DNA of 64,000 nt from an uncultured Armatimonadetes bacterium (GTDB taxonomy: Bacteria > Armatimonadota > Hebobacteria > Hebobacterales > Hebobacteraceae), in contig OY969415.1 of NCBI GenBank assembly GCA_963699135.1, forward strand, positions 3,833,577-3,897,576, given 5' to 3'. How positions within the stretch are numbered: the stretch's first letter is position 1; every line of letters begins with the position of its first letter. Position numbers and translations under genes: made by a program. This document shows, one piece after another, positions 1 through 20,238 of this stretch. The notes under the pieces were generated by a model. That model searched no databases and was not told the DNA's origin. It worked only from the letters and a program-made list of their open reading frames with translations.

Positions 1-547
1 GATAGAGTGGATCGAATCCCCCCAGCGCCAGCCACTTCTCCCGCCGGAACGCGAGCCCGCCACCATTTGCGTAGAGCTGCGGACAGGTCTCCGTAAGCCG
101 CGCCGGGTCGGTCTCATGGTGGATCGACAGCAGCCCCCGCTGCCACTCGCACGACGTGCGGTTCCCCAGCGTGTCCGTCAGCGAACCCTCCGGGTTGACG
201 AACTTGCATCCCACCGCAAACACGTCTTCCGCCGTCAAGTCTTCGAGTAGGGGAGGAAGGAAATCCGGCGCCACCACCATGTCGTTGTTCAGCAGCGCCA
301 CCACCTCGGTCTGCGCCGCCTCCACTGCCGCGTTGCAGGTGGCGCCGAACCCCCGATGGGGGAAGGCCATCACCTCCACCTCCGGGTGGACCGTGGCGAG
401 GTAATGGATGCTGTCGTCCGTGCTGCCGTCATCGGCCACCGCGACCACGTGGTCGCCGGCCGCTTTCGCTGCCGCCAGGGCCGCGGGCACGCATCGCTCC
501 AGCAGTTCGCGCCCATCGTAGTTGGCGAAGATCAGCGTCGCCTGCAT
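1..547 (-). CDS. Glycosyltransferase family 2 (5' part only; gene runs off the window start)
   Basis: Minus-strand translation from the ATG at 547 gives MQATLIFANYDGRELL...VAVADDGSTDDS...LLNNDMVVAPDFL, a typical GT2 N-terminal (DxD-type) domain. The ORF is open to position 1. It sits 5 bp downstream of the stop of the upstream GT gene. Confidence 0.8.
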   Translation of the reverse strand, partial: MQATLIFANYDGRELLERCVPAALAAAKAAGDHVVAVADDGSTDDSIHYLATVHPEVEVMAFPHRGFGATCNAAVEAAQTEVVALLNNDMVVAPDFLPPLLEDLTAEDVFAVGCKFVNPEGSLTDTLGNRTSCEWQRGLLSIHHETDPARLTETCPQLYANGGGLAFRREKWLALGGFDPLY

Positions 548-552
548 ACCCG

Positions 553-3459: not shown

Positions 3460-4481
3460 GGCTTCGCCGACGCGCCCCCATGGGCGTTGCTCGTCCAGAT
3501 CGCGGGCGCCTTCGCGCTCGGCAGCTCCAGCGCCTCCTCGCTCCATGGCTGGGGCCCCATGGACTTCGCCCAGACCGCCATCGCCGCTATCGCCTCCTCG
3601 AAGCTGTGCCGCTCCTCATACCCGAGCAGCCGCTCCGACTTCTGCCAGGTGCTGAAGGCGTTCTTCACCTCCCGCGGCCGGTCGGGAACGTGGACGATCT
3701 CGGGCCGGGCGTCGAAGGCGGCACATACCGCCGTGCACATCTCATTCACCGTCACCGCCTGCTTCCCGCCCACGTTGATCACTTGCCGGTCCAGCTCCGG
3801 CCGGAGTTCCGTTGCCTTCAAGAACGCGGGCAGCGAATCGCCAATGTAGCTGAAGGCCCGCTTCTGCTCCCCGTCCCCGTAGACGTAGATCGGCTCCCCC
3901 CGCATGATGCGATTCATGAAGATCGCCACCACGTTGCGGAACGGATCGCACAGGCTCTGCCGGGCGCCGAAGACATTATGCGGGCGGATGATGGTGTAGG
4001 CGAACCCATGCACTTCGGCGAGGATCTCCGTGATCGCCTCCATCGCCGCCTTGTTCACCCCGTACACATCCACCGGTCGCCGCTCCATCACCTCGTCGAA
4101 CGGTGTCTCCTGCTCGCCGTAGACCGCCATCGAGCTGTACAGCACCACCTTTTTCATCCCCGCCCGAATCGCCGGCACCAGCGCGTTCACATACGCCATC
4201 AGGTTCCGGCCGGAGACATCGCGGGGCTGGAATTGCGATGCGCCCTCCCGCGCGTTCGCCGCCAGGTGACACAGCACATCCGGCGGATTGCTGGCGATCG
4301 CCTGTTCCGCGCCCGCCGGGTCCCGCAGGTCGAGCTGGATGAACTTCACCCCCGCGGGGAGGTTGCGCTCGAATCCCCCGCTCAGGTCGTCGATCGCGAC
4401 GACCTCGTGCCCCTGGGAGAGGAAGCCCTCCGTCACGTGCCCCCCCATGAACCCTGCCGCCCCTGTCACGATGATCCGCAC
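3456..4481 (-). CDS. NAD-dependent epimerase/dehydratase (SDR family, UDP-sugar 4-epimerase-like)
   Basis: MRIIVTGAAGFMGGHV (a GxxGxxG Rossmann motif) and a YxxxK-type SDR core. Length is 341 aa. Confidence 0.85.
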   Translation of the reverse strand: MRIIVTGAAGFMGGHVTEGFLSQGHEVVAIDDLSGGFERNLPAGVKFIQLDLRDPAGAEQAIASNPPDVLCHLAANAREGASQFQPRDVSGRNLMAYVNALVPAIRAGMKKVVLYSSMAVYGEQETPFDEVMERRPVDVYGVNKAAMEAITEILAEVHGFAYTIIRPHNVFGARQSLCDPFRNVVAIFMNRIMRGEPIYVYGDGEQKRAFSYIGDSLPAFLKATELRPELDRQVINVGGKQAVTVNEMCTAVCAAFDARPEIVHVPDRPREVKNAFSTWQKSERLLGYEERHSFEEAIAAMAVWAKSMGPQPWSEEALELPSAKAPAIWTSNAHGGASAKP

Positions 4482-4519
4482 TGGCGCTCCTCGGTTTTAG
4501 GAATCCGGCCCGGATGATA

Positions 4520-5038
4520 TCATTTCTGACCCGACCGCGGGGCCTTTCTTGCCCTGCCCACCAGTGCCTCCGTAAGGTCCGTCACCGCCATCCCCGCCAA
4601 GATCAGCAGCAGCGGCAGCACCAGCAGGGCGACACAGGCCTCGGCTATCACTCTCGCCCCCGCGCCCGCCACCCCCGCCGACAGTAGCTCCGAGCCGGAG
4701 AGCGGCCTGATCTCACCCCCCGCCTCCGCCTCCAGCAAGGCCTTCCCTCGCGCCCCCGAGAGCGCCGCCACCAGTGTCGCCTTCCAGAACGCACGGTGCA
4801 GGAACTGGTCACCGCCGTGAACCACCGCCGCCACCACGAACCCGCGCCGCCGCAGCTCCCGCACCACTCCCCGCGCCCCCAGCCCTCCCCAGGCTATCAC
4901 CTCGTCCGCATTCCGCGGCGGCTCCGAACCCACCAGCGCCGTCACCTGCGCCCCTGGATAGCGCGACTTCAGCGCCTCGATGGTCGCCTCCAGTGCCTCC
5001 GTCGGAACGATCGATATCAGCAGCGCCCGCGCTTCCAT
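4520..5038 (-). CDS. Hypothetical protein with a C-terminal TM helix; first member of a 3-copy paralogous 'domain-X' family in this locus
   Basis: 172-aa ORF with the pattern ALLISIVPTEALEATIEALKSRYPGAQVTALVGSE...RRRGFVVAAVVHGGDQ...PLSG and a hydrophobic C-terminus. It is paralogous to 11430..11906 and to the N-terminus of 13102..14557. Confidence 0.5.
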   Translation of the reverse strand: MEARALLISIVPTEALEATIEALKSRYPGAQVTALVGSEPPRNADEVIAWGGLGARGVVRELRRRGFVVAAVVHGGDQFLHRAFWKATLVAALSGARGKALLEAEAGGEIRPLSGSELLSAGVAGAGARVIAEACVALLVLPLLLILAGMAVTDLTEALVGRARKAPRSGQK

Positions 5039-5039
5039 G

Positions 5040-6011
5040 CTAATCCCTCGGCGGTTGCGCCGTGTGCCGCCATCCCATCGCCAGCAGTTCGTCGAAACGT
5101 GCCAGCGGAATCCGCCGCGCCCGCTGTATCCGCCGCCTCCGGCTCAGCATCCGCGGCGTCTGCCACAGCGCGCTCGCCACGATCGCCGCCACCAGCCCCA
5201 GCCCATCCCGCCGCGCGATCCCCAGCATCGACTCCCGCAGCCGCTTCGCCATCAGCGGAACCGTCGGCAGCAGCGCCCGCAGCGGCCAGTCCTTCGTCCA
5301 TACGTGCATCAGATTCCGCAGCCCTAGGAACACCGCCCGTCGGCTGTAGATCCCGCGCGATACTCCCTCCCGATGCCGCACCACTGCCGTCGGCACGTAC
5401 CGCGCCCGCCACCCCGCCAACTGCGCCCGCCAGTTCAAATCCGCATCCTCGTAGCTGATGAAGAAGTCGGGGTCGAACAACCCCACCTCCACCAGCATCG
5501 CCCGCCGATACAGCGCCGCCCCCGCGCAGGCCCCGAACACCTCCCGCGGCTGATCGAACCACTCCCCATCCCGCTGCCCCCGCCCGATGTCATACACCCA
5601 CCCGTCCCCGGTGCAGGCATGCCCGGCCGAGTTGATAAGCGTGGTGTCATCGTAGTACACCATCTTCGGCGCGCACATCCCCACCTGCGCCTCCGCCCGC
5701 ATCGTCCCGACCAGCTCCTCCAGGCAGCGCGCGTCCAGCTCCGTATCATTGTTCAGCGAGAACACGAACTCGCCCCGGCTTTCCCCCATCCCCGCATTCA
5801 TCGCCCGCGAAAACCCCATGTTGCGCGGAAAGCGGATCACTCTTACCTCGGGGTATCGCTCTGCGACGAGTTCGAGCGAGCCATCCGTCGAGCCGTTGTC
5901 CGGCATGATGATCTCGAAATCCTGGAACGTTTGCCCGCGGATGGAGTTGAGACAGGTGGGCAGCAGATGCGCCCCATTCCAGTTCAACAGCACGATCGTG
6001 AGCGCAGGCAT
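5040..6011 (-). CDS. Glycosyltransferase family 2
   Basis: MPALTIVLLNWNG...IIMPDNGSTDGS...SLNNDTELD (GT2 motifs). The start ATG overlaps the stop of the upstream gene (ATGA at 6011). Confidence 0.8.
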   Translation of the reverse strand: MPALTIVLLNWNGAHLLPTCLNSIRGQTFQDFEIIMPDNGSTDGSLELVAERYPEVRVIRFPRNMGFSRAMNAGMGESRGEFVFSLNNDTELDARCLEELVGTMRAEAQVGMCAPKMVYYDDTTLINSAGHACTGDGWVYDIGRGQRDGEWFDQPREVFGACAGAALYRRAMLVEVGLFDPDFFISYEDADLNWRAQLAGWRARYVPTAVVRHREGVSRGIYSRRAVFLGLRNLMHVWTKDWPLRALLPTVPLMAKRLRESMLGIARRDGLGLVAAIVASALWQTPRMLSRRRRIQRARRIPLARFDELLAMGWRHTAQPPRD

Positions 6012-7111
6012 CAGTCCGGCCCGGCCTCCCGGCCCAGCCCGAACCGCCGCAGCGCTTTCCACCCCGCCTTCGCCACCCACTCCGACACGCGGTACAGCCG
6101 CCGAGATGTCACCCGCTCGAACTCCTCCCGCATCAGGTGCATCTCCCGCCGGATCTTTATCATCTCCCCCTTGTCCGGGTCTAGCTCGCCGAACGCCTCC
6201 CTCACCCACGCCCGCCCCGCCTCCGCGAGATCGGCATCGCGCGTCAGCGCCCCCAGCTCCTCCTCCGGCGGCGGCGTCCGCCCCTTAAGCGCGTCCCTCA
6301 CCCCCAGCGCGTGGGCATAGCTCGTCACCGCCTCGTAGAACGAGTTCACTGTCACCGCCCGCGCCGCCTCGATGATCCCCAGGTCCTTCCTCAGCTCCGG
6401 GTGCTTCCGCCAGAACACCACCGCCGCCCGCCCGCACAGCCGCGTCCGCGCCAGGTGCCTGTCCAGGCTCGGCGCGTGGTGGTGATAGGTCAACGCGGCC
6501 CTCCGATACACGATTCGCAGCCCCCGCTGCACCATCCGGTACGCCAGCTCGATGTCCTCATAGGCCGCCTGCCGGAAGTCCTCGTCGAACCCCCCCGCCT
6601 CCTCCAGCCAGTGCCGCTGAATCGAGCAGTTCGCGGTGTAGAAGGTCCAGAAAGTCACGTTCTCCGGATCGTTGATGTAGGTGAAGCCGAACTGCGCCCC
6701 GTGATCCAGGAAGAACATCAGCGGCGTTATCTCCAGGTCCGGGTGCCACGACACGTGGCCCACCACGCCCACGTCACCGCTGCGTTCGTGCGCCTTCAGG
6801 TGCTCCTGGATCAGCCCCCGGTCGGGGATGCAGTCATCCCCCGTGAACAGGATGATCTGCCCCTTCGCCTCCCGTGTCCCCAGATTCCGGGCCGCCGCCG
6901 GCCCCTTGTTCTCCTGGCGGTAGTACCGCAGCCGCGACTCCGGCGCGCCCACCGCCGCCACCACCTCAGACGTCCCATCCGTCGCGCCGTCATCCACCAC
7001 CACTAGCTCATAATCATCCGCGCTCGCGCTCTGCTCGTGCAAGAGCTTCCGCAGAGTCTCGCCGAGCAGCTCGCTGCGATTGTAAGTAGGGACGACGACT
7101 GTCAGCCTCAA
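6011..7111 (-). CDS. Glycosyltransferase family 2 with a C-terminal coiled-coil extension and conserved tail motif
   Basis: LRLTVVVPTYNRSELL...VVVDDGATDGT...FTGDDCIP (GT2). The tail reads ...EEFERVTSRRLYRVSEWVAKAGWKALRRFG. The likely TTG start at 7111 overlaps the upstream stop and follows a GGGAG Shine-Dalgarno sequence. Confidence 0.75.
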   Translation of the reverse strand: MRLTVVVPTYNRSELLGETLRKLLHEQSASADDYELVVVDDGATDGTSEVVAAVGAPESRLRYYRQENKGPAAARNLGTREAKGQIILFTGDDCIPDRGLIQEHLKAHERSGDVGVVGHVSWHPDLEITPLMFFLDHGAQFGFTYINDPENVTFWTFYTANCSIQRHWLEEAGGFDEDFRQAAYEDIELAYRMVQRGLRIVYRRAALTYHHHAPSLDRHLARTRLCGRAAVVFWRKHPELRKDLGIIEAARAVTVNSFYEAVTSYAHALGVRDALKGRTPPPEEELGALTRDADLAEAGRAWVREAFGELDPDKGEMIKIRREMHLMREEFERVTSRRLYRVSEWVAKAGWKALRRFGLGREAGPD

Positions 7112-8583
7112 CGCTTGACTCCCAACGCGCGTAGCATACCCCACCCGGCCTGCGCCGCCTTCACCGACCACCGGTACAGCCGCCGTGAGGTGATCTCCCG
7201 AAGCTCCTGCCGCTGCTGCGCGAGCGACTCCTCGACGCTCCGCGCCCACCCCTCCACCTCCTGCGTGCGGGCGAACAGCCTCTGCACTTCGTACTCCCGG
7301 TCCGCCACCAGCCGCGCCAGCCAGTCCGCGTGCCGCCGCAGCGCCTCCACTTGCGCCGCCTGCCGCTCCGGGTCGCTCCGGTGTTCGTGCAGCGCCACCG
7401 CCAGCCGATACCCCTCCGCGGTCCTCTCCGCCGCCCGCTCCCAGGTATAGTTCGCCGCGATGTGCTCCTTCAGCCGCTCCGACTTCGGCGCGCCATAGGC
7501 CGCTAGCACCGCCTCCCGTATCGGGTCGATCCGCGCCGGATCGCAGTACCAGGCCATCTCCCCGAAGTACTCCGGCGGTGAACCGCGGTTCGTCGACACG
7601 ATGCTGCACCCCGCCGCCCCGGCTTCGAGCTGCGTCAGCCCCGGCAACTCCACCCAGCTCACCAGCGCGTGCACCTTCGCCGCCGCGTAAGCCGATGCCA
7701 GTTCCTCCTCGGATAGCGACGGGATGAAGTGCGTGTTCTCATCCGCATACCGCCGGCACAGATCGAGATAAGATTCTGGGTTCGCCTGCCCCACGATTAC
7801 CAGCGGAACCCCCGACCCCCGCATCGCCGCGATCAAGCTGAGCTGATTCTTCTTCTTCTCCACCCGCCCCACGCACAACACGAAATCCTGCACCCCATGC
7901 TTCTGCACGAACAGCTCCGGCCTCGCCTCGAACGACGTCGGCTTCGCCGCGTTCGGCACCACCACTGACCGGCTCAAGTCCATCCCGAACGCCTGACTCA
8001 AGTACTCGGCGTTCATCTGCGCGTTGGGCAGGTACACCGTCGCCAGATCGATCAGCGCCTGCCTCTGAAGCTGCTGCCGCGCCCGTCCCCGCATCTCGAT
8101 CGGATCCTGCGGCGGCGCTTTGCGCGGTGTGGGGTTTCCCTGGCCCGGCTCCGGCAGCTCCCAGTAATCCGTGTCCCCCCACTCCAAGAACTCCGTCAAA
8201 TCCGTGTGCACCGTCGACAGCGCCACCGGCTTCCCCTGAGCCAGCGCGTTCAGGCAGTGCTGATACGGCTCCTCCGGCCGGTCCAGGTTGATGGCATGCA
8301 CCAGATCATAGCCCGAGAGATCGACCTCCGTCTCCCCGGTCATCTCGGCCGAGACGCCCAGGTTCCGCAGGTGGGGGAGCATCATCTCCAACTGCACCAC
8401 ATCCCCGCCCGGCTTCTCCCGGAAGTCCGGCCTGATCTGCATCACCACCCGCAGCTCCCGCGTCGACGGGGCAACCGCCGCCCGCCGCGGCATCAGCCGC
8501 GCGCCCGTCTGCTGTTCCAGCAAGAACCGCGCCAACTCGGGCGACATCGCGGCCGCCTGCCGCATCCCCTCCCGCTTCCGCAT
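7108..8583 (-). CDS. Glycosyltransferase family 4 (GT-B) with a C-terminal coiled-coil and the same conserved tail motif
   Basis: Core FVLCVGRVEKKKNQ...EELASAYAAAKVHALVS...GLTQLEAGAAGCSIVST (GT4 EX7E region). The tail reads ...QELREITSRRLYRWSVKAAQAGWGMLRALG. Start chosen at MRKREG, downstream of the stop of the pyruvyl transferase gene. Confidence 0.75.
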   Translation of the reverse strand: MRKREGMRQAAAMSPELARFLLEQQTGARLMPRRAAVAPSTRELRVVMQIRPDFREKPGGDVVQLEMMLPHLRNLGVSAEMTGETEVDLSGYDLVHAINLDRPEEPYQHCLNALAQGKPVALSTVHTDLTEFLEWGDTDYWELPEPGQGNPTPRKAPPQDPIEMRGRARQQLQRQALIDLATVYLPNAQMNAEYLSQAFGMDLSRSVVVPNAAKPTSFEARPELFVQKHGVQDFVLCVGRVEKKKNQLSLIAAMRGSGVPLVIVGQANPESYLDLCRRYADENTHFIPSLSEEELASAYAAAKVHALVSWVELPGLTQLEAGAAGCSIVSTNRGSPPEYFGEMAWYCDPARIDPIREAVLAAYGAPKSERLKEHIAANYTWERAAERTAEGYRLAVALHEHRSDPERQAAQVEALRRHADWLARLVADREYEVQRLFARTQEVEGWARSVEESLAQQRQELREITSRRLYRWSVKAAQAGWGMLRALGVKR

Positions 8584-8656
8584 CACCTCGGCCGCCGCCG
8601 CTTCCCGGTTCGCCAGCAGCCTCTCGCACGATGCCAGCGCCGCCACCACGTCGAGA

Positions 8657-9694
8657 TCATCGGCCCCGTGCCGCGTACTCCTGCATCCCCATCGCCGCGC
8701 AGAAATCCCACACCTTCTGCACATACGGCAGCGCCACAAACGGAATCCCCGCGTCCGCCGCCAGCATCACCGCATGCAGCCGCATCCCTATCATCAGGTC
8801 GAACTGCGCCAGCGCCCCTACCAGCTCGGGCGGCCCCGCCGGCGGCTCGACAATCCGCGCTGCCCCCGGATTCCCCGCCGCCTCCAGCACCCGCTCCAGC
8901 GCCGTCCGGTCATCGTCGTGCAGCCGTTGCATCGGCAGCAGCGCCACCGTCGCCCCCAACCGCTCGACCAGTGCGCGCACCAGCTCGCCCGCCCGCGCCG
9001 TCAACCGCTCCATCGCCTCCGGCGCGCCCGCCTCTACCCCGCCGAACCGGAACCAGGGCCGCAGGTTCAGCGCGATCAGCGGACGACTCGCCGCCTCCAG
9101 CCCAGCGCGGCTGAGCCAATCCCGAGCCGCTCCTGCTTCACCGGGCTGCACCAACATCGCCGGATCGGCCGCCTCCTGCACCCGCGTCCGCGCCACCCCG
9201 CACTCCACCAGCAGCTCTGCCGAGGCCGCGTCGCGCACCGTGATCGCGCTCGCCTCCTCGCCGAGGAAACGCGCCACCCGCCGCGCCGTGTCCGTCATCA
9301 GCGGGCCCACCCCGACCCCGTACAACATCACCGGCCGGCTCGCCGCCCGCGCCGTCGCCGTGATCTTCGCCAGCTCGTATAGCCACTGCCGGTCCGGGGG
9401 TTCCGTGAGCAGACGCGCCAGGCTGGGGTTGTAGTCCACATCGTAGAGCAGCCCGCCCCCGCCGAGGATCACCAGATCGGCCTCCTCGATCGCGCGCGCC
9501 AACTCCGGCCGATCATCGTAGGAGAGTGCAGTCGCGTCGAAAGCCGAGGTGAGATGCGACAGCTCCGGCCCGCCCGCCACCTTCACCGCGCGGCCACCCG
9601 CCACCCCGTGCAGCTCGGTCAGCATGCCCCAGAGAATCGCATCATCGCCCAGATTAGAGTAGCCCGCCGCCCCGCAGACTAAGATGTGACCCAT
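8657..9694 (-). CDS. Polysaccharide pyruvyl transferase (CsaB/WcaK-like)
   Basis: MGHILVCGAAGYSNLGDDAIL...ADLVILGGGGLL...LMIGMRLHAVMLAADAGIPFVAL, the signature of the PS_pyruv_trans family. The upstream N-terminal ORF extension is discarded. Confidence 0.8.
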   Translation of the reverse strand: MGHILVCGAAGYSNLGDDAILWGMLTELHGVAGGRAVKVAGGPELSHLTSAFDATALSYDDRPELARAIEEADLVILGGGGLLYDVDYNPSLARLLTEPPDRQWLYELAKITATARAASRPVMLYGVGVGPLMTDTARRVARFLGEEASAITVRDAASAELLVECGVARTRVQEAADPAMLVQPGEAGAARDWLSRAGLEAASRPLIALNLRPWFRFGGVEAGAPEAMERLTARAGELVRALVERLGATVALLPMQRLHDDDRTALERVLEAAGNPGAARIVEPPAGPPELVGALAQFDLMIGMRLHAVMLAADAGIPFVALPYVQKVWDFCAAMGMQEYAARGR

Positions 9695-9833
9695 GGGCTT
9701 CGCCTCGGAAGAAGAGAGCGCAAAGAAGCTTCGTCGGGACACTGAGCTACTCCTGCGCTCGCGGGCCCGCCGTCCCTCCCCATCCCGTTGGGCAGGAGCT
9801 TGCTCCTGCCATCCCCCGACCCTGTCATTGCGA

Positions 9834-9872
9834 GGGGCAGCGCCGCGCGCTGCCCCGTGGCAGTTTCGCCGT
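9834..9872. repeat. Hairpin repeat, family A, R orientation (TGTCATTGCGAGGGGC...GCCCCGTGGCA)
   Basis: Imperfect palindrome shared with at least 16 other copies in the window. Confidence 0.7.
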
Positions 9873-10086
9873 TTATCCAAGCATCCGGGCCCCACTTCGC
9901 CTCTGCCCCACGCGCGCCCGCCTCGCACTCCACCAACCAGTGGCGTGGGCTTGTGCGCCTCCGGCGCATTCGCCGTGAGCAAGAGCGAGCGGTAACCCGC
10001 GTAGGCACGCTTCGCGTGCCTCTCCCTCCGCCCTGCGCTCACCCGGGTGGGGGGGGAGGGCGTCTTGCACCCCAGTCGCGGCTGCA

Positions 10087-11232
10087 CTACCTCCCGGCCA
10101 CCAACAGATAGCCCCTCTGCGTTAGCACCGTGAAGAGCAAGTGCAGTTGCACGCGCACCTGGTCTCGGATCGGGATGGCCTGCACGGCCTCCGGAGGAGC
10201 CTGCGAGGCTATGTACTGCCAGAACACGTCCTGGAGTGCGTCCGCCTCGCGCCCGTAGCCCTGACGTCGCAACACCCGCACCGCGCAGCATGACACCGCC
10301 AGCGCCTTCGCCCCGTCCTCCGGGCGAAGCTCCTTGGCGTGCCGCGCCTGGCTCCTCGCACTCTCGATGCGCACGACGTCGTCATCCTTGATGAGATCGA
10401 GAAGCTGCAGGTAGTGATCGATCGCGTCGCGCACGGTGGCCTGCTGGGAAGCGGACCAGTCGTGGTCGAGTGCGCTCGTGGAGAGCGCATAGCCGAGCAC
10501 TTCATCGAAGAAGGCAATACAGTCAGGGTTCACCTCGAAAGCGAAGGCGACGCTTCTCCGCGGATCCCGGATCGAGGAGGGAGGTGCGACGGGCTGGTCT
10601 GCGACCGGCATGCCCGTTGATCTCACGAAGGCAAGATGGGCATCCATCAAGCGCTCGTCGATCGCGGACGAGAGGAGGACGTAGTACCCGGGCGCGGGGA
10701 AGTGGCTCTCATCGTGCATGTCGAACAGGACGTCCGGCGCGAGCGCCGTCACGACCCGCGCGCCAGGCCGCCATCTCCGGGCAGGCAGTGGACGCGTTCC
10801 AGTACATGATCCGCTCATAGGGCGGCTCCCAGGACCCTCCGGCGAACACGCGCAGGTCCCCAGGGGCGAGGAACCACTCCTCATTGCGCAACACTCCGTC
10901 CGGATTGATGGTCGGGATAATCGCCCAGTTACACTGGAAGCGCATGACCTGCGGGTTCCGCTGTCGGAGCTGGTCACAGAGCCAGAACATGGTCAACGCG
11001 CAGACCGGCTCAGTTGGGTCCTCAAACCCCCACAGCAGCGCTGTTCTATCGTAGCCGCCATCGAAGCGGATCATGTCGATAGGCAGACCTTCCGCCGACT
11101 GACCGATTGTCTCGACGCTGAAGCCTGGCTGGCCTCGCAGCGCATCTGTCTGCGCCCGGATCTCTGCGAGCGTCAGATACCGCGCATACGTCGGCACAGA
11201 CGCCAGCAGCTCCTGTGGAAGCGCCTGCATGA
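10087..11232 (-). CDS. M14-family zinc carboxypeptidase, interrupted by one frameshift near 10780
   Basis: The N-terminal half (track ORF 10709..11473 frame, from MQALPQELL) contains ...IMYWNASTACPEMAAW. The C-terminal half continues in the 10087..10977 frame (...VLFDMHDESHFPAPGYY...). A 1-nt indel lies in a CGCGCG run. Confidence 0.6.
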
Positions 11233-11319
11233 CATCTCCTAACCGTTCGTTGCTTCGGCAGCTTGCTGCCGAAGCTTTCCCGCTGCCACCCTTTGTCCTC
11301 GCCGTTCCGCCCGCCATCG

Positions 11320-11420
11320 GCGGGCGCCAATCTGCGCAATCTGCGTAATCTGCGGTTACTGCCGTTGCCGTTCCCGCCGAAGGCGGCCCCCCCCTCTCTG
11401 CGCTCTCTGCGTCTCTGCGG
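11320..11420. repeat. Composite repeat, modules C and D, R orientation (GCGCAATCTGCGCAATCTGCGTAATCTGCGGTTACTGCCGTTGCCGTTCC...)
   Basis: Reverse complement of the GGAACGGCAACGGCAGTAACCGCAGATTGCGCAGAT... module found at 33.85, 46.8 and 47.5 kb. Confidence 0.7.
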
Positions 11421-11429
11421 TGAATGCCT

Positions 11430-11906
11430 CTACCCCTCCGCCTCCCCGACCCTCCCCACCAACCCGCTGCCATACAACCACACCGCCACCAACCCGAACC
11501 ACATCAGCGCCACCGGCGCCAGCAGGAATTGATCCACTATCGCCCACGCCAGCGCGAGCGCGCCGCGTCGCATCCCGAAGCGATAGAAGTAGTCCGGTGA
11601 CGGCACCAGCAGCTTGTGCCGCGCGCCGCTGAGCAGCGCCCTCATCCGCGCTCGCTCATGCCCGCCCGACATCGCGATGCAGACCGCGTCGAACCGCATG
11701 CCGCGCAGCCGAAGGAGCCCCTCGCTCCCGAGCGTATGGAAGCTCGCGCCCGGGAACGCGCGCTGTATCGCCCCCAGACACTGCTCGTCGAGGCCGGGGG
11801 TGACCAGGACGCGCAGCACCGGCGGCGTGCCGAGGTCGGCCCCTGTCACCCGCTCGCGGAAGAAGTCCAGCACATACCCGGCGCAGTAGCGCAGCAGGCC
11901 CCTCAT
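11430..11906 (-). CDS. Hypothetical protein, domain-X family member 2 (C-terminal TM helix)
   Basis: MRGLLRYCAGYVLDFF...AIQRAFPGASFHTLGSEG...RGMRFDAVCIAMSGGHERARMRALLSGARHKLL is paralogous to 4520..5038. Its ATG overlaps the probable GT4 stop (ATGA). Confidence 0.5.
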   Translation of the reverse strand: MRGLLRYCAGYVLDFFRERVTGADLGTPPVLRVLVTPGLDEQCLGAIQRAFPGASFHTLGSEGLLRLRGMRFDAVCIAMSGGHERARMRALLSGARHKLLVPSPDYFYRFGMRRGALALAWAIVDQFLLAPVALMWFGLVAVWLYGSGLVGRVGEAEG

Positions 11907-13105
11907 CGCCGCGCCCCGCGGCCCGCGTGAGTGCATCTTCCAGCCGCTCCGCCAGCCGGTCGTTGTCGTGCTCGCGCGCCGCCAGGTCACGACCAGCGGC
12001 CGACAGCCGCGCCTGCAGCCCCGCGTCACTCAGTGCTCGCGCCAATTGGTCGGCGAACGACCTCGCGTCATCTGCGACCAGCAGCTCCCGTTCGTGCGCG
12101 ACGTTGAGCCCCTCCGCGCCGCGGCTCGTCGTCACCACTGGCAGGCCCGCCGCTATCGACTCGACCACCTTGTTGCGCACCCCGGACCCCAGGCGCAGCG
12201 GCGCGGCCAGCGCGGCCGCCTCGTCCATCGTCGCGCGCAGATCGGGCACGAAGCCCACGATCTCCACGCTCGCGTCGCGCTCCATCCGGCCCAGCGCCTC
12301 CGGCGCCACTCGCGCCAGTTCCTCTCTCGTGCCGGTTCCGACCACCACTAGGCGCGCCGCGGGATTCGCCTTCACTACCTGTGGCCAGATCCTCCTGATA
12401 GAGGAAGAGCAGACCGTCGAGATTGGGGAAGTGCTCCATGTGCCCGAGGAAGAGCACGCGACCCGGCGCCGGCCGGCGCGGCCGCAACGCGAGCTGCTCG
12501 GGATCGACTCCGGGGGGGATGGCGGTGGTCTGCGTGCGCGGCGCCATCGCGTTGGTGATCCGCGCCTCTCGCTCCGAGACCGCGACCACGTGATCGGCCT
12601 TCCGGAACACCCCGGTCTCGTAACGCAGCATCCGCAGCCAGTCGAGCCGCGCCCGACACCGCTCCCAACCGCGCGCGGCCTCCATGCGCCGGCGATAGGC
12701 TAGCGATGTGAGTTCCAACGCAGTAACTACGCACGGCGCCGGCCGCGTCCATCGCCGGTACTGCGCCATGTTGCTGCTCGCGAACTGCACCACCTCCGGC
12801 CGGAAGTGGCGCGTCACCTCCGCGACGTCCGCCGCCAGCTCCTCCGAGTAGTACTCCGTCACCCATCGGGGCAGTTCCGCGAAGGAGCTGTAAGCATGTG
12901 GTGTTGGCTTCCGCAGCCGCGCCCTCGCCGGCTCGCAGTGACGCCCGATCTCTGCCAGCCCGGCCGCTTCCGCCTCCCGCTCGTAGCACCCCACGAACGC
13001 CACCTGATGCCTCTGCGCCAGCCGCCGCAGCCAACCCCAGATCTCCGCGTGGCCGCCTGCCACCGGCGGATAGGGGAGGAACGGGCTGACGAGTAGGATC
13101 CTCAC
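11903..13105 (-). CDS. Glycosyltransferase family 4, interrupted by at least two frameshifts (near 12385 and near 11940)
   Basis: N-terminal domain VRILLVSPFLPYPPVAGGHAEIW... is in track frame 12068..13336. The C-terminal domain ...KANPAARLVVVGTG...RLGSGVRNKVVESIAAGLPVVTT... is in frame 11656..12375. The GTG start overlaps the upstream stop (GTGA). Confidence 0.65.
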
Positions 13106-14557
13106 TCCGATTCCCCGCCCGCCTCCGGAGTTGCCAGCGCCAGGATATCGCGGTCCCCCAGATCGCCTCGACGCCGCGCCCGCCATCGCCTCAGCAGCGC
13201 CGTCGGCAGCATTGGTAGCGCCGCCAGCAGCGCCCGGCACATCATCCCCTCGCCCACTGGCAGCTCGCGATACAGCCGCGCGCACACGTACGCCCAGTGC
13301 TGCGCCAGCATCCCCGGATCGCGCATGTTCTTCCACGTGAAGATCAGCGCGTTCTTCAGAAACGCCTCATTCGCGTAGGCGTCCCCGAACCGCTTGCCAA
13401 TCCACGCCCGCCGCTGGTGCCACACCGACGCCTCCGGCTCGAACACCGAACGCCACCCCCGCCGCCACGCCCGATAGCCCAGCTCGATGTCCTCCCAGTA
13501 GAGCGGCCGGAAGATGGTCTCGAATCCGCCCAGCGCGGGTACCGCGCGCGGTGATACACCGACGACGCGCCGCCCGCGTAGAGGATCGGCCCGGCCTTCA
13601 GCGGTGGCAGGTGATAGGGTTCGGTAATGCCCGAGAACGCGGGCACGACGTTCCCCGTCTCCATTTGCGAGCCCTCGGGCAGCTCGATCCGCGAGCACAC
13701 CGCGAACGTATCCTCTCGATCGAAGTGAGGCAGGATCGCTCGCAGAAATCCCGGCCGCACTTGCACGTCGGTGTTGATCAGCGCGAACAGCGGCGTTGTG
13801 GTCGCCGAGATACCCGCCCTCACCGCGCCCGCGAACCCCTGGTTCCTCTCCAGCCGCAGCACCTTCACACTCGGGTATTGCTGCCGCACATACTCCGCCG
13901 TCCCATCCGTGCTCGCGTCGTCCACCACCATCACCCGATGCTGCCGCCCCGCCTCCGCCAGCAGCGGCGGCAGACAGAAGTCCATCAACTGCTTCTGGTT
14001 GTAGGTGGGGACGATGAACGTAACGGTGCGGCCGATGGGTGGGCCGGGGTCGGGGATCGGTGGCCTTACCACTGCCAGCCGCCAGATCCAGTCGGCCCCG
14101 CGCACCTTCAGCATCACGCCCAGGTACAGGTATGATAGCGATTTCGCGAGGATCATGCGCGCCCACCATCGCCCGCTCAGCGGGCGATAGGGAGGCAGGT
14201 GAAGTTGGTGCCACTCGCCCGCCCTGCCGTACGCGAGCGTGACCCGCGCCCCGGCCAGCGCCCCCGTCAGCTTCCCGCGCCGGCCGCCCTCTCCCGTCAG
14301 CAGCAACACCGCCACGTCATACCGCCGCCCCCGCGCGCCGATCATCCCGCGCGGCCCCCCCGCTTCTCCCAGCGCTTCTATGGAGAGATCTGGGGCAATC
14401 GCGCGCAGCTCCGCCAGCGCTTGCTGACCGGCCGCGGACTGCGTGGAGCCGGCGAGGAGCCCGCGCCGCCATTCCTTCGCGCCGGGGAGATCGGTGAGAT
14501 CGACAGGGGTGAGATAGACGTTTCCTACAGTTCTGATCAGCTCAGACAGGAGGGGCA
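13102..14557 (-). CDS. Fusion protein: N-terminal domain-X (member 3), TM segment, then GT2 domain; one frameshift near 13555
   Basis: MPLLSELIRTV...RAIAPDLSIEALGEAGG...RGRRYDVAVLLLTGEGGRRGKLTGALAGARVTLAY...PLSG (domain X), then MILAKSLSYLYLGVMLKV (TM), then TFIVPTYNQ...VVDDASTDGT (GT2). The GT2 C-terminus continues in frame 13102..14214. Confidence 0.65.
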
Positions 14558-15325
14558 TAGGGAGCCCTCGCTTGCGCCGCCGCGCGCTCCACTTCGTCCA
14601 CCGACGTCCGATACTTCGCCACCACGTCTTCGCTCGCGCCATCCATCATCATGTGCCCATGGTCCAGCCAGATCGCCCGCTCGCAGAACTTCCTGATCGA
14701 GTTGAGTTCGTGCGACACCACCAGGATCGTCTTCCCCTACTTGCTTGAACTGCCGCAGCCGCTCGAACGACTTGTGCTGGAAATGCTCGTCGCCCACCCC
14801 CAACACCTCGTCGATCAGCAGCACATCCGGGTCCAGATGCACCGCCACCGAGAACCCCAGCCGCACCACCATCCCACTCGAATACGTCTTCACCGGCGCG
14901 TCCATGAACTCGCTCAGCTCGGCGAAATCCACGATCGCATCGTACTGCTGCGCGGTCTGCTTGCGACTGAGGCCCAGCAGGCTCGCATTCATAAACACGT
15001 TCTCGCGGCCGGTCAGGTCGGGGTGGAATCCTGTCCCGAGTTCCAGCATCGGGCACACCCGCCCCTCCACCTGCACCGACCCGCGCGTTGCCACCAGCAC
15101 CCGCGCCAGGATCGCCAGCAGCGTGCTCTTCCCCGATCCGTTGGGCCCCACCACGCCCACCACCTCGCCGGGGTTCACCGTGAACGACACGCTCCGCAGC
15201 GCCCAGAACTCCTCGTAGCCCGTCTGCCCCCGGAAGAACGCCACCAGCGCCTCCTTCAGCGTGTTCACCCGCTGATGAGGCCGCCGGTACTGCTTCCAGA
15301 GATCGCGGACCTCGATCCTGCTCAC
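14543..15325 (-). CDS. ABC transporter ATP-binding protein (Wzt/TagH-like polysaccharide exporter ATPase), one frameshift near 14720
   Basis: GVVGPNGSGKSTLL (Walker A), YSSGMVVRLGFS (ABC signature) and LLIDEVLGVGD (Walker B). The C-terminus GKTILVVSHELNSIRKFCERAIWLDHG is in a different frame. The GTG start overlaps the permease stop, and the stop overlaps the next gene by 15 nt. Confidence 0.7.
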
Positions 15326-16233
15326 TACGCCCGCTCCGCAAAAAGATACGACTTCCGATGGAAGATGATGTGCCCCGCCACCGCGAACACGATCGCGATC
15401 GCGGCCGATCCGAGCACATACCACCCCATGGGATACTGCGCCTGCAACTGCGCCTGCAGCGCCGCCGCCGCCTCGGGGGTGCGAGTCGCGCCCGAGCTCA
15501 CCACGATCGGATTCCCCCCGCCCTCCAGCAGTCCGCTGCGATAGCCCAGCACGCACATCGCCACCGGGTCCAGCAGATAGAGCTGCTTGATCTGCGGCAG
15601 GTAGTCCGAGATGATCTGCGTCAGCCAGTTCTTCCCCGTCACCTGCTTGCCCAGGAAGTTGCCCAGCGGATACAGGATCGGTGTCAGGAAGAACCACAGC
15701 GACAGCAGGTTGCCGACGATGAACTTCACATCGGCATAGAACACGCTCCACGCCGCCAGCATCGACGACAGCCCATAGGCGAACACGGCGATCAACACCG
15801 TCGCGGGGATCACCAGCCAGTAGTGATAGTTGACATCCACCCGCCAGATCGCGAACAGCCCCAGCAGCACCAGGAAGGCGAGCGCAAGGTGCACCAGGTT
15901 GGAGATCAGCGCGGCGATCGGCAGAATGCAGCGGGGGAAATAGGCCTTCTTCACCAGCGCCAGCTCCGCCGTCACACAGGCGGTGCTGTCGAGCACGGTC
16001 TGGGAGAAGAACAGCCACGGCAGGAACCCGGTGATGAGGAACGCGGTGTAGTCCTTCTGCGGGTTCTCCATGATGATCTTGAAGACGAAATACCACACCC
16101 CGATCTGCATCAGGGGATTCAGCAGCGACCAGAAGAACCCCAGAATCGAGTTCTTATAGCGCACCCGGAGATTGCGTCGGACGAGGTTCCACAGCACCTC
16201 CCGATAGCGCCAAAGCTCGGCGATTTCCTTCAT
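15325..16233 (-). CDS. ABC-2 type transporter permease (Wzm-like)
   Basis: 302 aa with six hydrophobic segments. The N-terminus ...NLVRRNLRVRYKNSILGFFWSLLNPL is the characteristic ABC-2 permease motif. Confidence 0.8.
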   Translation of the reverse strand: MKEIAELWRYREVLWNLVRRNLRVRYKNSILGFFWSLLNPLMQIGVWYFVFKIIMENPQKDYTAFLITGFLPWLFFSQTVLDSTACVTAELALVKKAYFPRCILPIAALISNLVHLALAFLVLLGLFAIWRVDVNYHYWLVIPATVLIAVFAYGLSSMLAAWSVFYADVKFIVGNLLSLWFFLTPILYPLGNFLGKQVTGKNWLTQIISDYLPQIKQLYLLDPVAMCVLGYRSGLLEGGGNPIVVSSGATRTPEAAAALQAQLQAQYPMGWYVLGSAAIAIVFAVAGHIIFHRKSYLFAERA

Positions 16234-16319
16234 AATGTGGCCCGCAAACGCCTCCGCCGGCGATTATACAGGGCGCAGCAGTGGCAGTCAAAGCGGCGGT
16301 TGCTCCGTGGCGGCCTCGC

Positions 16320-16600
16320 CATTGCTGTCATCCCGAGCGACTCGCCACTCCGAGCAGAGCGAGAAGGCGAGTTATGCGAGGGATCAAGACCTGCGGAGCC
16401 GACCGGAGGAAGGCGACTCCCCATTCCCAGGGCAAGAGTCCCTAGGCTGCCATCGGCGGCCGGGATGGCGGCCTGCGAAGCCGGCTTAGCCACTCGTCTC
16501 CTGCCATGGCCTCTGCCGTTTCCGTCCGTAGGGGCGTGATTCATCACGCCCTCCCATCTGTCATTGCGAGGGGCGGCCGCTTCCGCCCCGTGGCAATCTC
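16320..16600. repeat. Composite repeat region in R orientation (TGATCC/CAGGATGACAGCAACGGC module, GGCGTGATTCATCACGCC module, family-A hairpin)
   Basis: Reverse-complement matches to modules present downstream of 21 kb in forward orientation. Confidence 0.55.
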
Positions 16601-16796
16601 GCAGTTCCCTCCGGCGCAGGTGGCCTCTGACTATCCGCGTCCATCACACCCCCACCCTTGTCCGCCCACCAACCACCATGTCCCACTGCCGGCCTTCTTC
16701 CCGGCCGGCCCTCCCACTACCATGGCTCCGGCGTGGGAAGGCGTCACGGAGTCACCCGACAGAGCCGACCCCGCCCAAGTGAGAAAGGGGATCAGA

Positions 16797-17102
16797 ATGA
16801 AGATGCTCATGCACGCCAGGATGCCTCACAAGGAGTTCAACGCCGCCCTCCGTGATGGCACCGCCGAGAAGAAGATGAAGCAGATCCTCGAGGCCACGAA
16901 GCCCGAAGCCGTCTACTTCACCGAGTGGAAAGGCCAGCGCAGCGCCCTCATGATCGTCAACCTGAATGACCCATCAGGGGTGCCCGCGCTCGCCGAGCCG
17001 TGGTTCCTGACCTTCAACGCAGACGTCGAGTTCCACATCGTCATGACCCCGGAAGACCTGGCCAAAGGTGGGCTGGAGGCTCTCGCGAAGAAGTGGGCCT
17101 AG
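16797..17102 (+). CDS. Small conserved hypothetical protein (about 100 aa; DUF3303-like by pattern, uncertain)
   Basis: ATG at 16797 preceded by AAAGGGG. The product is MKMLMHARMPHKEFNAAL...EAVYFTEWKGQRSALMIVNLND...PWFLTFNADVEFHIVMTPEDL. The upstream part of the track ORF lies in repeat DNA and is rejected. Confidence 0.5.
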   Translation: MKMLMHARMPHKEFNAALRDGTAEKKMKQILEATKPEAVYFTEWKGQRSALMIVNLNDPSGVPALAEPWFLTFNADVEFHIVMTPEDLAKGGLEALAKKWA

Positions 17103-17177
17103 CACAGGCCGATCGCACGCCCGAACGGAGCTGACGGGGAGCCACCGACTCCCCTCCCTGCCCACGCGCCGCCCCTC

Positions 17178-17224
17178 CCACTGTCATTGCGAGGGGCGGC
17201 CGCCTTCGCCCCGTGGCAATCCCG
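17178..17224. repeat. Hairpin repeat, family A, R orientation
   Basis: CTGTCATTGCGAGGGGCGGCCGCCTTCGCCCCGTGGCAATCC. Confidence 0.7.
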
Positions 17225-17306
17225 CCGTCGCCGTTCCGCTGCTGAAGCAGCGGAGACGCGCCGCGAAAAGCGGCACGAAAAGTGGCGTTTTCGCAAGAGT
17301 GCACCG

Positions 17307-17324
17307 ATGTTCCACGTGGAACAT
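17307..17324. promoter_or_regulatory. 18-bp perfect palindrome ATGTTCCACGTGGAACAT (candidate operator or recombination site)
   Basis: Exact inverted repeat in a 1.15-kb non-coding region. It is followed by repeated GCATTTCGGGG motifs. Confidence 0.4.
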
Positions 17325-18249
17325 TTCGGGGATTTCCGGGGTGTTCACATTGGCGGAATCGGAGGGTGGGGTGGGAGGCGAGGGAGTGAAGGGGAACTGA
17401 GGGGGCGGAGAGCGGGAATCGGCATAAGTAAGCAAGGCATTTGTAGTACAAGAGGCAAGCTGAAATGGGGTCGATTTCCGTACGCGGGCCTTTTGGCATC
17501 TGCCCTGGAAGGTGGCTAGATGGGCCCAGGAGAGGGAGGGCGAGTTAGGTCCGCGTCGCGAAATGCGCCTATCAGGGTTTTTTCGGGGGAGGGCCGAACT
17601 ATTTCACGTAGGGCAATCCAGGGGGGTCAGAGGGGAAGCTGGGGGCATTTCGGGGTCTGATGGCAGGTGCGCGCAGGGGTGCATAGGGTGCACGAAATGC
17701 GCGGTTCGAGGGGTGGGATTGGGCTGTTTCCGGGGGTTCGGGAGCGTGCATTTCGGGGCTGGAAATGGGCCCGGATCGGGGTGTACTAAGGGGTTAGTAC
17801 AGTGGGTTTGGGCATAGGCATAAGTGGAATGGGGGCGGGAGGACTTCGCTCACGCATCGGCTTCTGTGGCCATGCCCGCGACATGAGAGAAAGAGCTTGC
17901 TGCCTCTGCCCGGATGACTCTGGTTCCGAGTGCTACGGGAATGGAGGCAGTGCCCGCCGTCGATAGCCCGACACAGCGCGGTGTCACTCGCGGGCAGGTC
18001 AGGGCCGAGGATAGGCGGAAGTGATGGCGACATGAGGGATCGTCTGTGGCAGATCATTGGTTGCGCGGCCGTGCTGTCGGGAATCGTACCGCGTAGCGAA
18101 AGCTGCACTTCGGTCAAACTTGCTCCGTCTGACAGCGGCGGCTCCTTCGATCAGTGGCCCAGGACATGGGAGGCGGTGAGCCGCCGGTATGCGCAGCAGG
18201 AGGGCGGCGGGATGCGCGGCTTCCGCGGGCGGGACGATGGGGATGACGC

Positions 18250-19956
18250 ATGACACGGGAGGAGTTGCTTGAGCTGATCGCCAGCGTCCGCCGATATGAG
18301 AGCGAACTTGGCTCCGTAGAAGTGAAGTCTGCTCATCGGGGCACGCCGAAACGCCTCTTCGAACTCCTCTCTGCACTCGCCAACCGCACTGGTGGCGGCG
18401 CTATCCTCTTCGGGCTGGAGGAAAGCACGGACTACCGAGTCGTGGGAGTGGGCGATGCTAGCCGTCTACAAGAGGATGTTGCCAGCATTGCAGCCGAGAT
18501 GGAGCCCCCTCTTCGTCCGGAATTCACGGTTGACGAGGTGGAAGGCCACACTGTCGTCGCAGTGGAAGTGCCAGAGGTGCCCGTGCAGCAGCGCCCCTGC
18601 CACCTCAGGTCCTCTGGCCTACAGAAGGGCTCGTTCATCCGAGTCGGCAATAGCAACCGCTTGATGACCGACTACGAGATTCTTCGGATACATCAGCGCC
18701 CGCATCCAACCCACATATGACGGGGAGGTAGTGAGTGAAGCAACACTTCGAGGACCTAGACGACACGAAGCTGCTCGCGTATCTCAGCGCCCTGAGGCAG
18801 AGCCGCACGGACGCCTCTTACCTTGAGCAGCCGCGGGAACGGGTGCTAATGCAGTTCCGCATCGCAAAGGAAGACGAGGGTGTCCTGCGGCCGACTCTGG
18901 CTGGGTTGCTGGCCTTCGGGAGATATCCGCAGAGCTTCGAGCCGCAGCTCGTTATCACCTACATTCAGTTCTACGGCACGAGCGAAAATGAGAAGACGCC
19001 TCGGGGTGAGCGCTTCCTGGATAGCCGCAAGTTCGAGGGTGCACTGCCAGACCTCGTTGATGCCGCTGTGCGGCACGTCATGGCCAGCCTGCGCAAGAGC
19101 AGTCTGATAGAAGGACTCTACCGAAGAGATATACCAGAGTATCCTGAGGAGGCCGTCCGTGAGGCCGTGGTGAATGCAGTCGTTCACCGCGATTACAGCA
19201 ACTACGTGCGAGGCAGCTATGTCCAGATTCGGCTTTTCGCGGATCGCCTGGAGATCCAGAGCCCGGGTGGCCTCTACGGCAATGTGACCGAGGACACCCT
19301 CGAAATGGAGCACTCGACCCGGAATCGAGTCCTGATGCGATTCCTAGAGGACCTCCGAATCGCAGAGAATCGCGGCAGCGGCATCAGCGCTATGAACCGC
19401 GCCCTGCGCGATGCCAATCTGGAGCCACCCAGGTTCCAGGACAAGAGGAGTTCGTTCTGGGTCACTTTTCGAAGTCACTCGCTGATGAGTCCAGACACCA
19501 TCACGTGGCTCAACCAGTTTGCCGCGCAGCCTCTCAACGACCGCCAGCGACTCACGCTCGCCTACCTCCGTAGCAACGAACAGATCACCAACCCTATCTA
19601 CCGCCAGCTCAACCATGTGGACCCGCTGACCGCTACCAAGGAGCTGCAGGAGCTCGCCAGGACCGGGCTAGTAGAGCAGCACGAAGTGAGGAGATGGGCT
19701 CACTGACGTTCTGAATCCCTTACTTGTCCAGCCTGCGAGGGCAGAGACGCGGACCAATGAGGAGAAGGTTCTGGCATATGTTCAGGAGCATGGTTCCATT
19801 CGCAACCCGGAATGTCGGGATCTGCTGGGCCTACGCAGGCATCAAGCGCGCTTGCTCCTGAAGGGGCTCGTTGAGAAGCGTCTCTTAAGGCGTACGGGAG
19901 AGACGCGCGGCACTCGCTACGTGCTCCCCTATGCCCTGGCCCCGCGGGATAGCTGA
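18250..19956 (+). pseudogene. Fragmented COG2865-type regulator gene (AlbA_2/Schlafen-like N-domain + HATPase_c_4 + C-terminal wHTH), split into three frames
   Basis: Fragment 18250..18720 is an AlbA_2-like domain (frame 1). Fragment 18735..19706 is an HATPase_c_4-like domain (frame 3). Fragment 19732..19956 (frame 1, no start codon) reads EEKVLAYVQEHGSIRNPECRDLLGLRRHQARLLLKGLVEKRLLRRTGETRGTRYVL, the typical wHTH tail of this family. Confidence 0.65.
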
Positions 19957-19966
19957 TGCGCGGGGC

Positions 19967-20009
19967 TTTGCAAAAGTTTTGCAAAGTTTTGCAAAGATTT
20001 TGCAAAAGC
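19967..20009. repeat. Tandem repeat, 4 copies of TTTTGCAAA(A)G
   Basis: CTTTGCAAAAG TTTTGCAAAG TTTTGCAAAG ATTTTGCAAAAG. It is AT-rich in a 70% GC background and lies 230 bp upstream of the NHL lipoprotein gene. Confidence 0.8.
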
Positions 20010-20238
20010 TCTGCAGACGGCCATGGCAGGCGGCATCTCAGGCCTGCGACAGGTTCACGACGTGCCTGGATATCCCCACCGCGAACCCTCCACATAACCG
20101 GCCGACAAGCCCGCGCCGCTGGTCGGTGGGACGTGGAGGGGGCGGGCGCGGGGGCAGAGACGGGTTCGCATTGACAGCGGCCCCCCTGAAGGAGAATCCA
20201 GACAGTAGTGGTAAAGTGGTGTTAGTCTCTGAAGGAGA

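Follow-up and report, generated by a model that had tools for sequence, protein, structure and literature searches.

A parS site and a conserved G-rich element at an origin-type strand switch: a candidate non-canonical oriC in an Armatimonadota bacterium

The window analysed here is a stretch of 64,000 nt from one contig (OY969415.1) of an uncultured Armatimonadetes bacterium, and all coordinates are positions within it. Near 17.2 kb, where base composition, gene direction and repeat orientation all switch strand, it holds a G-rich, gene-free region with a perfect 16-bp parS centromere site and a cluster of ATTTC motifs. We infer from its position and conservation that this region is probably an origin-proximal centromere combined with a non-canonical candidate oriC. 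The components of this reading are held with different confidence. That the palindrome is a functional parS is, judged from its letters, very likely, and that a replication origin lies within ~3 kb is likely; the proposal that oriC is the conserved core proper is tentative.

If this reading is correct, bidirectional replication would start in or beside the element. The ATTTC repeats, together with an invariant hairpin block, may form a platform on which an initiator or a protein organising the origin would act, and the parS next to this platform would allow ParB to load, and segregation to begin, as soon as the origin had been copied. The features on which the argument rests are as follows (coordinates, strand where one applies, description).

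17170-17228, + strand: last plus-strand copy of a 59-nt repetitive extragenic palindrome (REP)-like family; its partner copy is at 16547-16605, and the skew minimum (17237) lies just to its right
17244-17829: type-A conserved element, non-coding, with a G-rich + strand (nhmmer E=1e-195)
17308-17323: parS centromere site TGTTCCACGTGGAACA, formed by the central 16 nt of the 18-bp palindrome (17307-17324); single in the window
17322-17328, + strand: CATTTCG copy 1, adjoining parS and followed by another ATTTC (17332-17336)
17559-17565, - strand: CATTTCG copy 2 (CGAAATG on the + strand)
17646-17652, + strand: CATTTCG copy 3
17693-17699, - strand: CATTTCG copy 4
17749-17755, + strand: CATTTCG copy 5
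17501-17829: core also found in the type-B relatives L001, L087 and L088, which lack parS (nhmmer model positions 258-591, E=1e-21)
17607-17652: conserved block 1, CGTAGGGCAATCCAGGGGGGTCAGAGGGG..GCATTTCG, 85% identical in type B amid diverged surroundings
17782-17801: hairpin/inverted repeat TGTACTAA-GGGG-TTAGTACA in conserved block 2 (17780-17829), 100% identical in L085, L086, L087, L088 and L001

The strand switch, the parS site and the motif cluster

The leading strand is G-rich, and a change from negative to positive GC skew at which genes diverge is the signature of an origin. Measured over 2 kb, the skew was -0.10 to -0.25 over positions 1-17000 and +0.10 to +0.26 over 19000-64000, and it was weaker (+0.04 to +0.14) over the low-GC block 16000-20000. 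The cumulative G-C minimum of the window lies at 17237, and the best two-segment changepoint at 17240. The skew tracks the arm and not the gene strand, as shown by five Pfam-supported minus-strand genes to the right of the switch that have skews of +0.13 to +0.22, and of +0.23 to +0.50 at codon third positions. Nearly all genes of the left arm are on the minus strand, and on the right arm ~17 are on the plus and 5 on the minus strand. The REP-like family (GTCATTGCGAGGGGCGGCCGC...CCCGTGGCAATC) behaves in the same way: every copy is in plus orientation up to 17221 and in minus orientation from 21589 on. All three left copies (9824, 16560 and 17183) are plus, and 9 to 12 of the 12 right copies are minus (22930, 25975, 31747, 31899, 34363, 38099, 38274, 41391 and 47027). 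This orientation is independent of the neighbouring gene, since behind plus-strand genes the repeat is plus on the left arm and minus on the right. An earlier interpretation of this DNA from its letters (the sequence-only reading) had placed the region at a switch in repeat orientation and gene strand. Both switches are borne out, with the cumulative G-C minimum at 17237 and the repeat changing orientation between 17221 and 21589; the main conclusion here, that they mark a boundary between replication arms with the polarity of an origin, had not been drawn.

The skew of this lineage is extreme, at ~±0.2 by arm and up to 0.5 at codon third positions. Strong skew is common to the window lineage, L002 and L088. 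It is ~0.0-0.05 in L093-L095, L097, L098 and L102, despite proteins that are 82-86% identical, and the syntenic relatives L093-L097 hold no copies of the REP-like family.

parS is the 16-bp loading site of ParB, which segregates newly replicated origins and recruits SMC. The 18-bp palindrome ATGTTCCACGTGGAACAT at 17307-17324 is single in the window even when 3 mismatches are allowed (0.01 expected). Its inner part, 17308-17323, is a 16-bp palindrome of the form that characterises chromosomal parS, TGTTNCACGTGNAACA, and differs from the generic parS TGTTTCACGTGAAACA by two symmetric mismatches. It is identical, letter for letter, to parS2 and parS3 of P. aeruginosa, which have been mutated and their function shown (PMC4368675), and the same 16-mer is also named parS in papers on Burkholderia and Bdellovibrio. 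The site lies 70 nt from the cumulative G-C minimum, which is an origin-proximal placement relative to an inferred origin, and an identical 16-mer is present in the relative L085, at position 735. Pfam scans of the window ORFs (open reading frames) detected no ParB gene in the 64 kb. The sole ParA/MinD-like gene of the window (48942-50267) encodes a 441-aa protein of the longer AAA_31 type and lacks a ParB partner. As other identities for the palindrome we considered an archaeal origin recognition box (ORB), a Noc-binding site (NBS) and sites of the CRP/FNR or LexA type; the exact match to parS led us to set these aside. A 24-nt stretch consisting of parS and the first motif copy, TGTTCCACGTGGAACATTTCGGGG, occurs exactly in the IMG/VR contigs L108-L111 (GC 0.43). 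A viral scan with parS plus 7 nt showed that these represent a single low-GC phage family with no further homology to the element, and the match is probably coincidental: a phage parS with a chance extension.

The element is poorer in GC (0.60-0.63) than its flanks (0.67-0.70), and its GC skew reaches +0.40. CATTTCG occurs five times in the 1.15 kb of the region and once in the other 62.8 kb of the window. Dinucleotide shuffles of the element predicted 0.10 copies, and none of 2000 shuffles reached five. Similarly, ATTTC/GAAAT occurs ten times against 1.26 expected (0/2000 shuffles), and all four window copies of GCATTTCG fall within less than 200 nt (17559-17755). A regex scan identified two canonical G-quadruplex (G4)-type motifs in the element (17364-17384 and 17611-17645), and 14 on the plus strand against one on the minus strand window-wide. 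The palindrome, the motif copies and the G-richness noted in the sequence-only reading are therefore present and far above chance; its GC-poorer, quadruplex-prone island is borne out as well. Its five-fold repeat stands for the 7-mer core, CATTTCG; the extended motif CATTTCGGGG that it had named has three occurrences. Further features of the region are these.

17364-17384, + strand: G4-type motif GGGTGGGGTGGGAGGCGAGGG (regex scan; second motif at 17611-17645)
17424-17463: 40-mer with the least GC in the region (40%), a weak candidate for a DNA unwinding element (DUE); conserved in L085
17600-17615, + strand: degenerate parS-like site TATTTCACGTAGGGCA, as read from its letters; its left half is one mismatch from TGTTTCAC
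17830-18249: non-conserved spacer reaching the AlbA_2 pseudogene; no homology in any relative, ORFs without a Pfam match
19967-20008: four tandem TTTTGCAAAG units (~10.5 nt), outside the element; alternative DUE/oriC candidate

The degenerate parS-like site falls within 19 nt that L085 matches without a single difference. Between the last plus-strand REP-like copy and parS there is a GC-rich hairpin (17226-17263, DNA fold -15.3 kcal/mol), followed by 1.9 units of a 12-nt tandem repeat, CGAAAAGCGGCA (17264-17286). Both are partly conserved in L085.

Conservation of the element in relatives

Relatives of the element were found by scanning a metagenome collection of 241 million records with the hairpin TGTACTAAGGGGTTAGTACA (17782-17801), which returned four relevant contigs and one chance match. 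In the closest, L085, positions 672-1256 align to the whole of 17244-17829 with 81.5% identity over 589 nt, and the alignment contains only 3-4 single-base indels. The flanks of L085 differ from those of the window: the C-terminus of accA and a small lipoprotein lie to its left, and an IS200-like Y1 transposase lies to its right. L086 begins within the element and runs on into a TnpB-like gene. The type-B relatives (L001, L087 and L088) encode the 101-aa protein that precedes the element in the window at 95% aa identity, and have a CHAT-domain gene after the element. The hairpin that is invariant in all five relatives has a DNA fold of -5.5 kcal/mol (z=-6.3).

ATTTC is enriched in the relatives as well. 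L085 has nine copies against 1.0 expected and the type-B contig L087 has five against 0.86, and no shuffle (1000-2000) reached either count. Pooled copies give the logo G-n-S-C-ATTTC-S-G-G, and the type-B copies stand partly at non-homologous positions. As the repeats are enriched in the relatives while their positions turn over, they behave as a cluster of binding sites.

Conservation stops sharply at 17829 in every relative, and beyond this edge the cargo differs: the IS200-like Y1 transposase in L085 (1453-1935, - strand), a TnpB-like protein (Cas12f1-like TNB + RuvC) in L086 (494-1870, + strand) and the CHAT-domain protein in L087 (954-2624, - strand). This diversity suggests an insertion hot spot. 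In the contig L003, a 1.18-kb gene-free, G-rich gap (10304-11480) lies at that contig's own cumulative skew minimum (10540), after a 78%-identical gene for the 101-aa protein and before restriction-modification genes. This gap could not be aligned to the window element, and its ATTTC enrichment is weak (5 against 1.4 expected).

The 101-aa protein (16797-17102) is DUF3303-like, has ~70% identity across many phyla (2743 database matches), and is labelled 'panthothenate synthetase' in some sources; its gene lies between two direct REP copies in the window. Scanning a genome collection with it gave relatives of at most 72% identity from many phyla, none of which could be aligned to the element. 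The element is absent from L089 and L103, and the contig L104 ends directly after the gene. The 101-aa gene on its own does not mark an origin, as nothing similar is seen in L089. Exact-protein look-ups found no identical copies of window proteins on record.

Origin hallmarks, locus history and competing explanations

Criteria for oriC as applied by Ori-Finder combine a GC-disparity minimum, a DnaA-box cluster and an indicator gene (PMC10225481). The window has the minimum, with an origin-type strand switch at which REP and gene orientation flip too. Several observations weigh against an origin in the element, and most concern the other hallmarks. The 64 kb contain only two sites within one mismatch of the DnaA box TTATCCACA. 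Only 3-mismatch look-alikes of it, and no TTWTYCAC site, occur in 15.5-20.5 kb, and within 17100-18237 no site has two mismatches or fewer. No run of at least three DnaA-trios ([T/A]A[G/A]) was found on either strand of 16200-18300, and none of dnaA, dnaN, parAB, gidAB, rpmH and rnpA turned up when 40 window ORFs, drawn from both sides of the switch, were scanned with Pfam. The element has no strongly AT-rich DUE, its lowest-GC 40-mer being the 40% GC stretch at 17424-17463, and the most AT-rich stretch of the window lies 2.1 kb to its right (19967-20008). With the G-rich element set aside, the skew is flat over 15.7-20 kb, which places the switch to within ~4 kb and not at the element alone. 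In addition, the skew minimum is that of one 64-kb window. Finally, type B (L001, L087 and L088) has no parS at the locus. With no DnaA-box cluster, DnaA-trio array or dnaA/dnaN neighbour, the element falls outside the canonical oriC, and any origin in it would be a non-canonical one.

The strongest evidence against simply regarding the locus as the site of a conserved oriC comes from the three closest syntenic relatives, L093-L095. Named relatives of the neighbouring Wzm protein all belong to Armatimonadota. In L093-L095 one side of the junction is kept with Wzm (86% aa identity) and GT2 in the same relative order, and the other with NHL (82%), MoxR (85%), TPR, zf-HC2, a 735-aa protein and HisK. 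As both sides are in the same order, the junction is ancestral and does not stem from a recent inversion. However, the Wzm-NHL gap in these relatives is ~390 nt: the whole 4-kb block 16234-20238 is absent, and the element with it, so these relatives do not require the element here. They also have no parS at the corresponding locus, almost no GC skew and no REPs, and the weak skew means that their own origin cannot be placed. In the window, the 4-kb block comprises a REP copy, the 101-aa gene, a second REP copy, the element, an AlbA_2/HATPase_c_4 gene and an AT-rich tandem array. The AlbA_2/HATPase_c_4 gene (Schlafen-like, RecG C-terminal-like; 18250-19946) is split over at least three frames, with pieces at 18250-18720 and 18735-19706 and a winged-helix C-terminal piece at ~19747-19946, and is probably a pseudogene. 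Four independent assemblies with an 81%-identical Wzm (L098-L101) all stop 105-135 nt upstream of Wzm, at GACATTTTCGCTCTGCATTTTCACGGGG, which resembles the ATTTC motif family; this shared end point hints at a repeat or variable element there.

What else could explain the region? The main rival is that it is a centromere only: a ParB/parS site with accessory half-sites or nucleoid-protein sites, with the origin a few kb away at some other point of the zone of flat skew, such as the TTTTGCAAAG array. The parS sequence is certain, DnaA boxes are absent from the element and the switch, once the G-rich element is set aside, is localised just to ~15.7-20 kb, all of which would suit such an arrangement. 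So would the ATTTC motif, which we take to resemble the [A/G]TTTC core of ParB and Noc half-sites. The array itself, between the AlbA_2 pseudogene and the NHL gene, is a candidate origin: its four units each contain the palindrome TTTGCAAA, no other 45 nt of the window are as AT-rich (GC 0.31), and it is followed by the weak DnaA-box-like 9-mers ATATCCCCA at 20070 and CCCTCCACA at 20086 (TCCACA core at 20089). Yet these two boxes are at about chance level (TCCACA occurs 0.47 times per kb), and the array is found in no available relative flank, including the right flanks of L086 (3 kb) and L087 (2.4 kb), whereas the element is conserved. Moreover, type B keeps the core without parS, which indicates that the core has a function of its own. 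We regard a centromere without an origin in the element as unlikely. Somewhat less probable is that the region is not an origin at all but a rearrangement or recombination boundary, the element being a remnant or target of mobile DNA (IS200/IS605, REP/RayT or island integration) with a parS by chance. The block is missing from syntenic relatives and lower in GC, a REP copy abuts the skew minimum, the boundaries of conservation are sharp, and the right edge adjoins differing mobile or defence cargo (Y1_Tnp, TnpB-like, CHAT and the AlbA_2 pseudogene). Nevertheless, ancestral synteny across the junction speaks against a recent inversion, and the REP copies at 16560 and 17183, outside the glycosyltransferase cluster, keep the left-arm orientation. 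The dispersed copies that typify REP/IS200-IS605-type elements are not seen: the element is single-copy in the 64 kb, and its hairpin recurred in just the four relevant contigs of the 241 million records. BLAST gave no match to plasmids or phages, the window has no transposase or integrase near the element, and the Y1_Tnp and TnpB-like genes adjoin it only in L085 and L086, outside the conserved boundary. Polarity, gene orientation and parS all fit an origin. The scar of a lost mobile element, one of three identities put forward in the sequence-only reading, is thus unsupported for the conserved core, though the flanks are full of mobile DNA.

Another of these three, a large structured non-coding RNA (ncRNA), G-rich if read from the plus strand and C-rich from the minus, in which inverted CGAAATGC/GCATTTCG copies would form helices, is very improbable. 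The 8-mers are exact reverse complements in the order (-)(+)(-)(+), so that two stems are possible, and indels are few at 81% identity. The minus strand of the core also gave an RNAalifold z of -2.24, but against column shuffles neither the three-sequence core (z of -0.86 and -2.24) nor the full element (-0.98 and -0.36) was judged significant. The region had no Rfam match at the gathering threshold or at E<=10 and no tRNA or tmRNA nearby, and a promoter/terminator consensus scan returned no sites (a sigma-54 promoter considered at 17493 was rejected because its -12 element is missing). In L085 the partner motifs become GTATTTGG and GAATTTCG, changes that are uncompensated, and the type-B motif copies stand at non-homologous positions. 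A decayed protein-coding gene is harder still to credit, in spite of mechanical ORFs of 100-152 aa and a neighbouring AlbA_2 gene that is visibly decaying. None of the eight ORFs in 17041-18376 has a Pfam match at E<=1, none carries the signature of high GC at third codon positions, and the single-base indels relative to L085, a conserved homologue, break every reading frame. Conservation is also block-wise, with repeated short motifs. The region is therefore non-coding, as had been claimed from its letters, and in relatives it is conserved non-coding DNA that retains the motifs, not the decayed gene with unconserved motifs that would have told against that claim. This leaves the cluster of regulator-binding sites as the only survivor of the three identities, now specified as parS with an ATTTC cluster.

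A more radical form of the origin reading is that the origin wholly lacks DnaA boxes. It would be a G-rich module of ~330-590 nt with ATTTC iterons, G4-prone runs and the invariant hairpin, and it may have come in with the 4-kb block, in which case the origin would have been relocated or replaced. Firing would depend on a DnaA that has diverged, on an initiator other than DnaA or on a mechanism assisted by R-loops or G4. The strong ±0.2 GC skew of the lineage would then have built up around the element. We consider this form improbable, and retain the origin-proximal centromere with a non-canonical candidate oriC as the favoured reading.

Origins have been defined experimentally in few phyla, and predictors lean on DnaA boxes and linkage to dnaA. 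Here, in a poorly studied phylum, a sharply localised origin-type switch and a perfect parS occur without recognisable DnaA boxes, which provides a concrete example on which the universality of the DnaA-box/DnaA-trio design can be examined. Since there are syntenic relatives without the block and without strong skew, the locus may be informative about origin replacement too. Even taken conservatively, the locus offers an (origin, parS) anchor for orienting metagenome-assembled genomes of this lineage and for coverage-based estimates of growth rate.

Comparison with known systems

Compared with the bacterial oriC as recognised by Ori-Finder, the element is likewise intergenic and non-coding, lies at the GC-disparity minimum, adjoins a centromere site and has genes and strand-biased repeats diverging from it, with short motifs in constrained spacing. 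It differs in having no DnaA-box cluster, DnaA-trios or dnaA/dnaN neighbour and, beyond the weak candidate at 40% GC, no marked AT-rich DUE; its repeat is G-n-S-C-ATTTC-S-G-G, and it is strongly G-rich with G4-type runs. Since three defining features of the canonical oriC are absent, the element would work like an origin but would not belong to that family. In plasmids and secondary chromosomes, iteron-type origins likewise place several copies of a short motif, in either orientation, within a few hundred bp of DNA next to a partition site. They differ from the element in that no rep/rctB-like initiator or par genes are near it, its copies are not regular direct repeats and it has no plasmid homology.

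The ATTTC(C/G)G core presumably resembles the ATTTCC half of the NBS, ATTTCCCGGGAAAT, and the GTTTC of the parS half-site. The ATTTC copies of the element are only half-site-like, without palindromic full sites, and to our knowledge Noc is known only in Firmicutes. The resemblance to the archaeal ORB, a dyad TCCACGTGGA with GGGG a few bases on, we take to be superficial: the host is bacterial, the dyad is even-centred and an exact parS, and no Orc1/Cdc6 gene is present in the window.

The parS site, in contrast, is of a kind already known. It differs from chromosomal parS/ParABS systems (P. aeruginosa parS2 and parS3, B. subtilis spo0J parS) in that there is one copy in 64 kb, the parAB operon is not nearby and the type-B lineage has no parS at this locus. 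It shares with them the same 16-bp palindrome, TGTTCCACGTGGAACA, and the origin-proximal placement, and it is kept in one relative.

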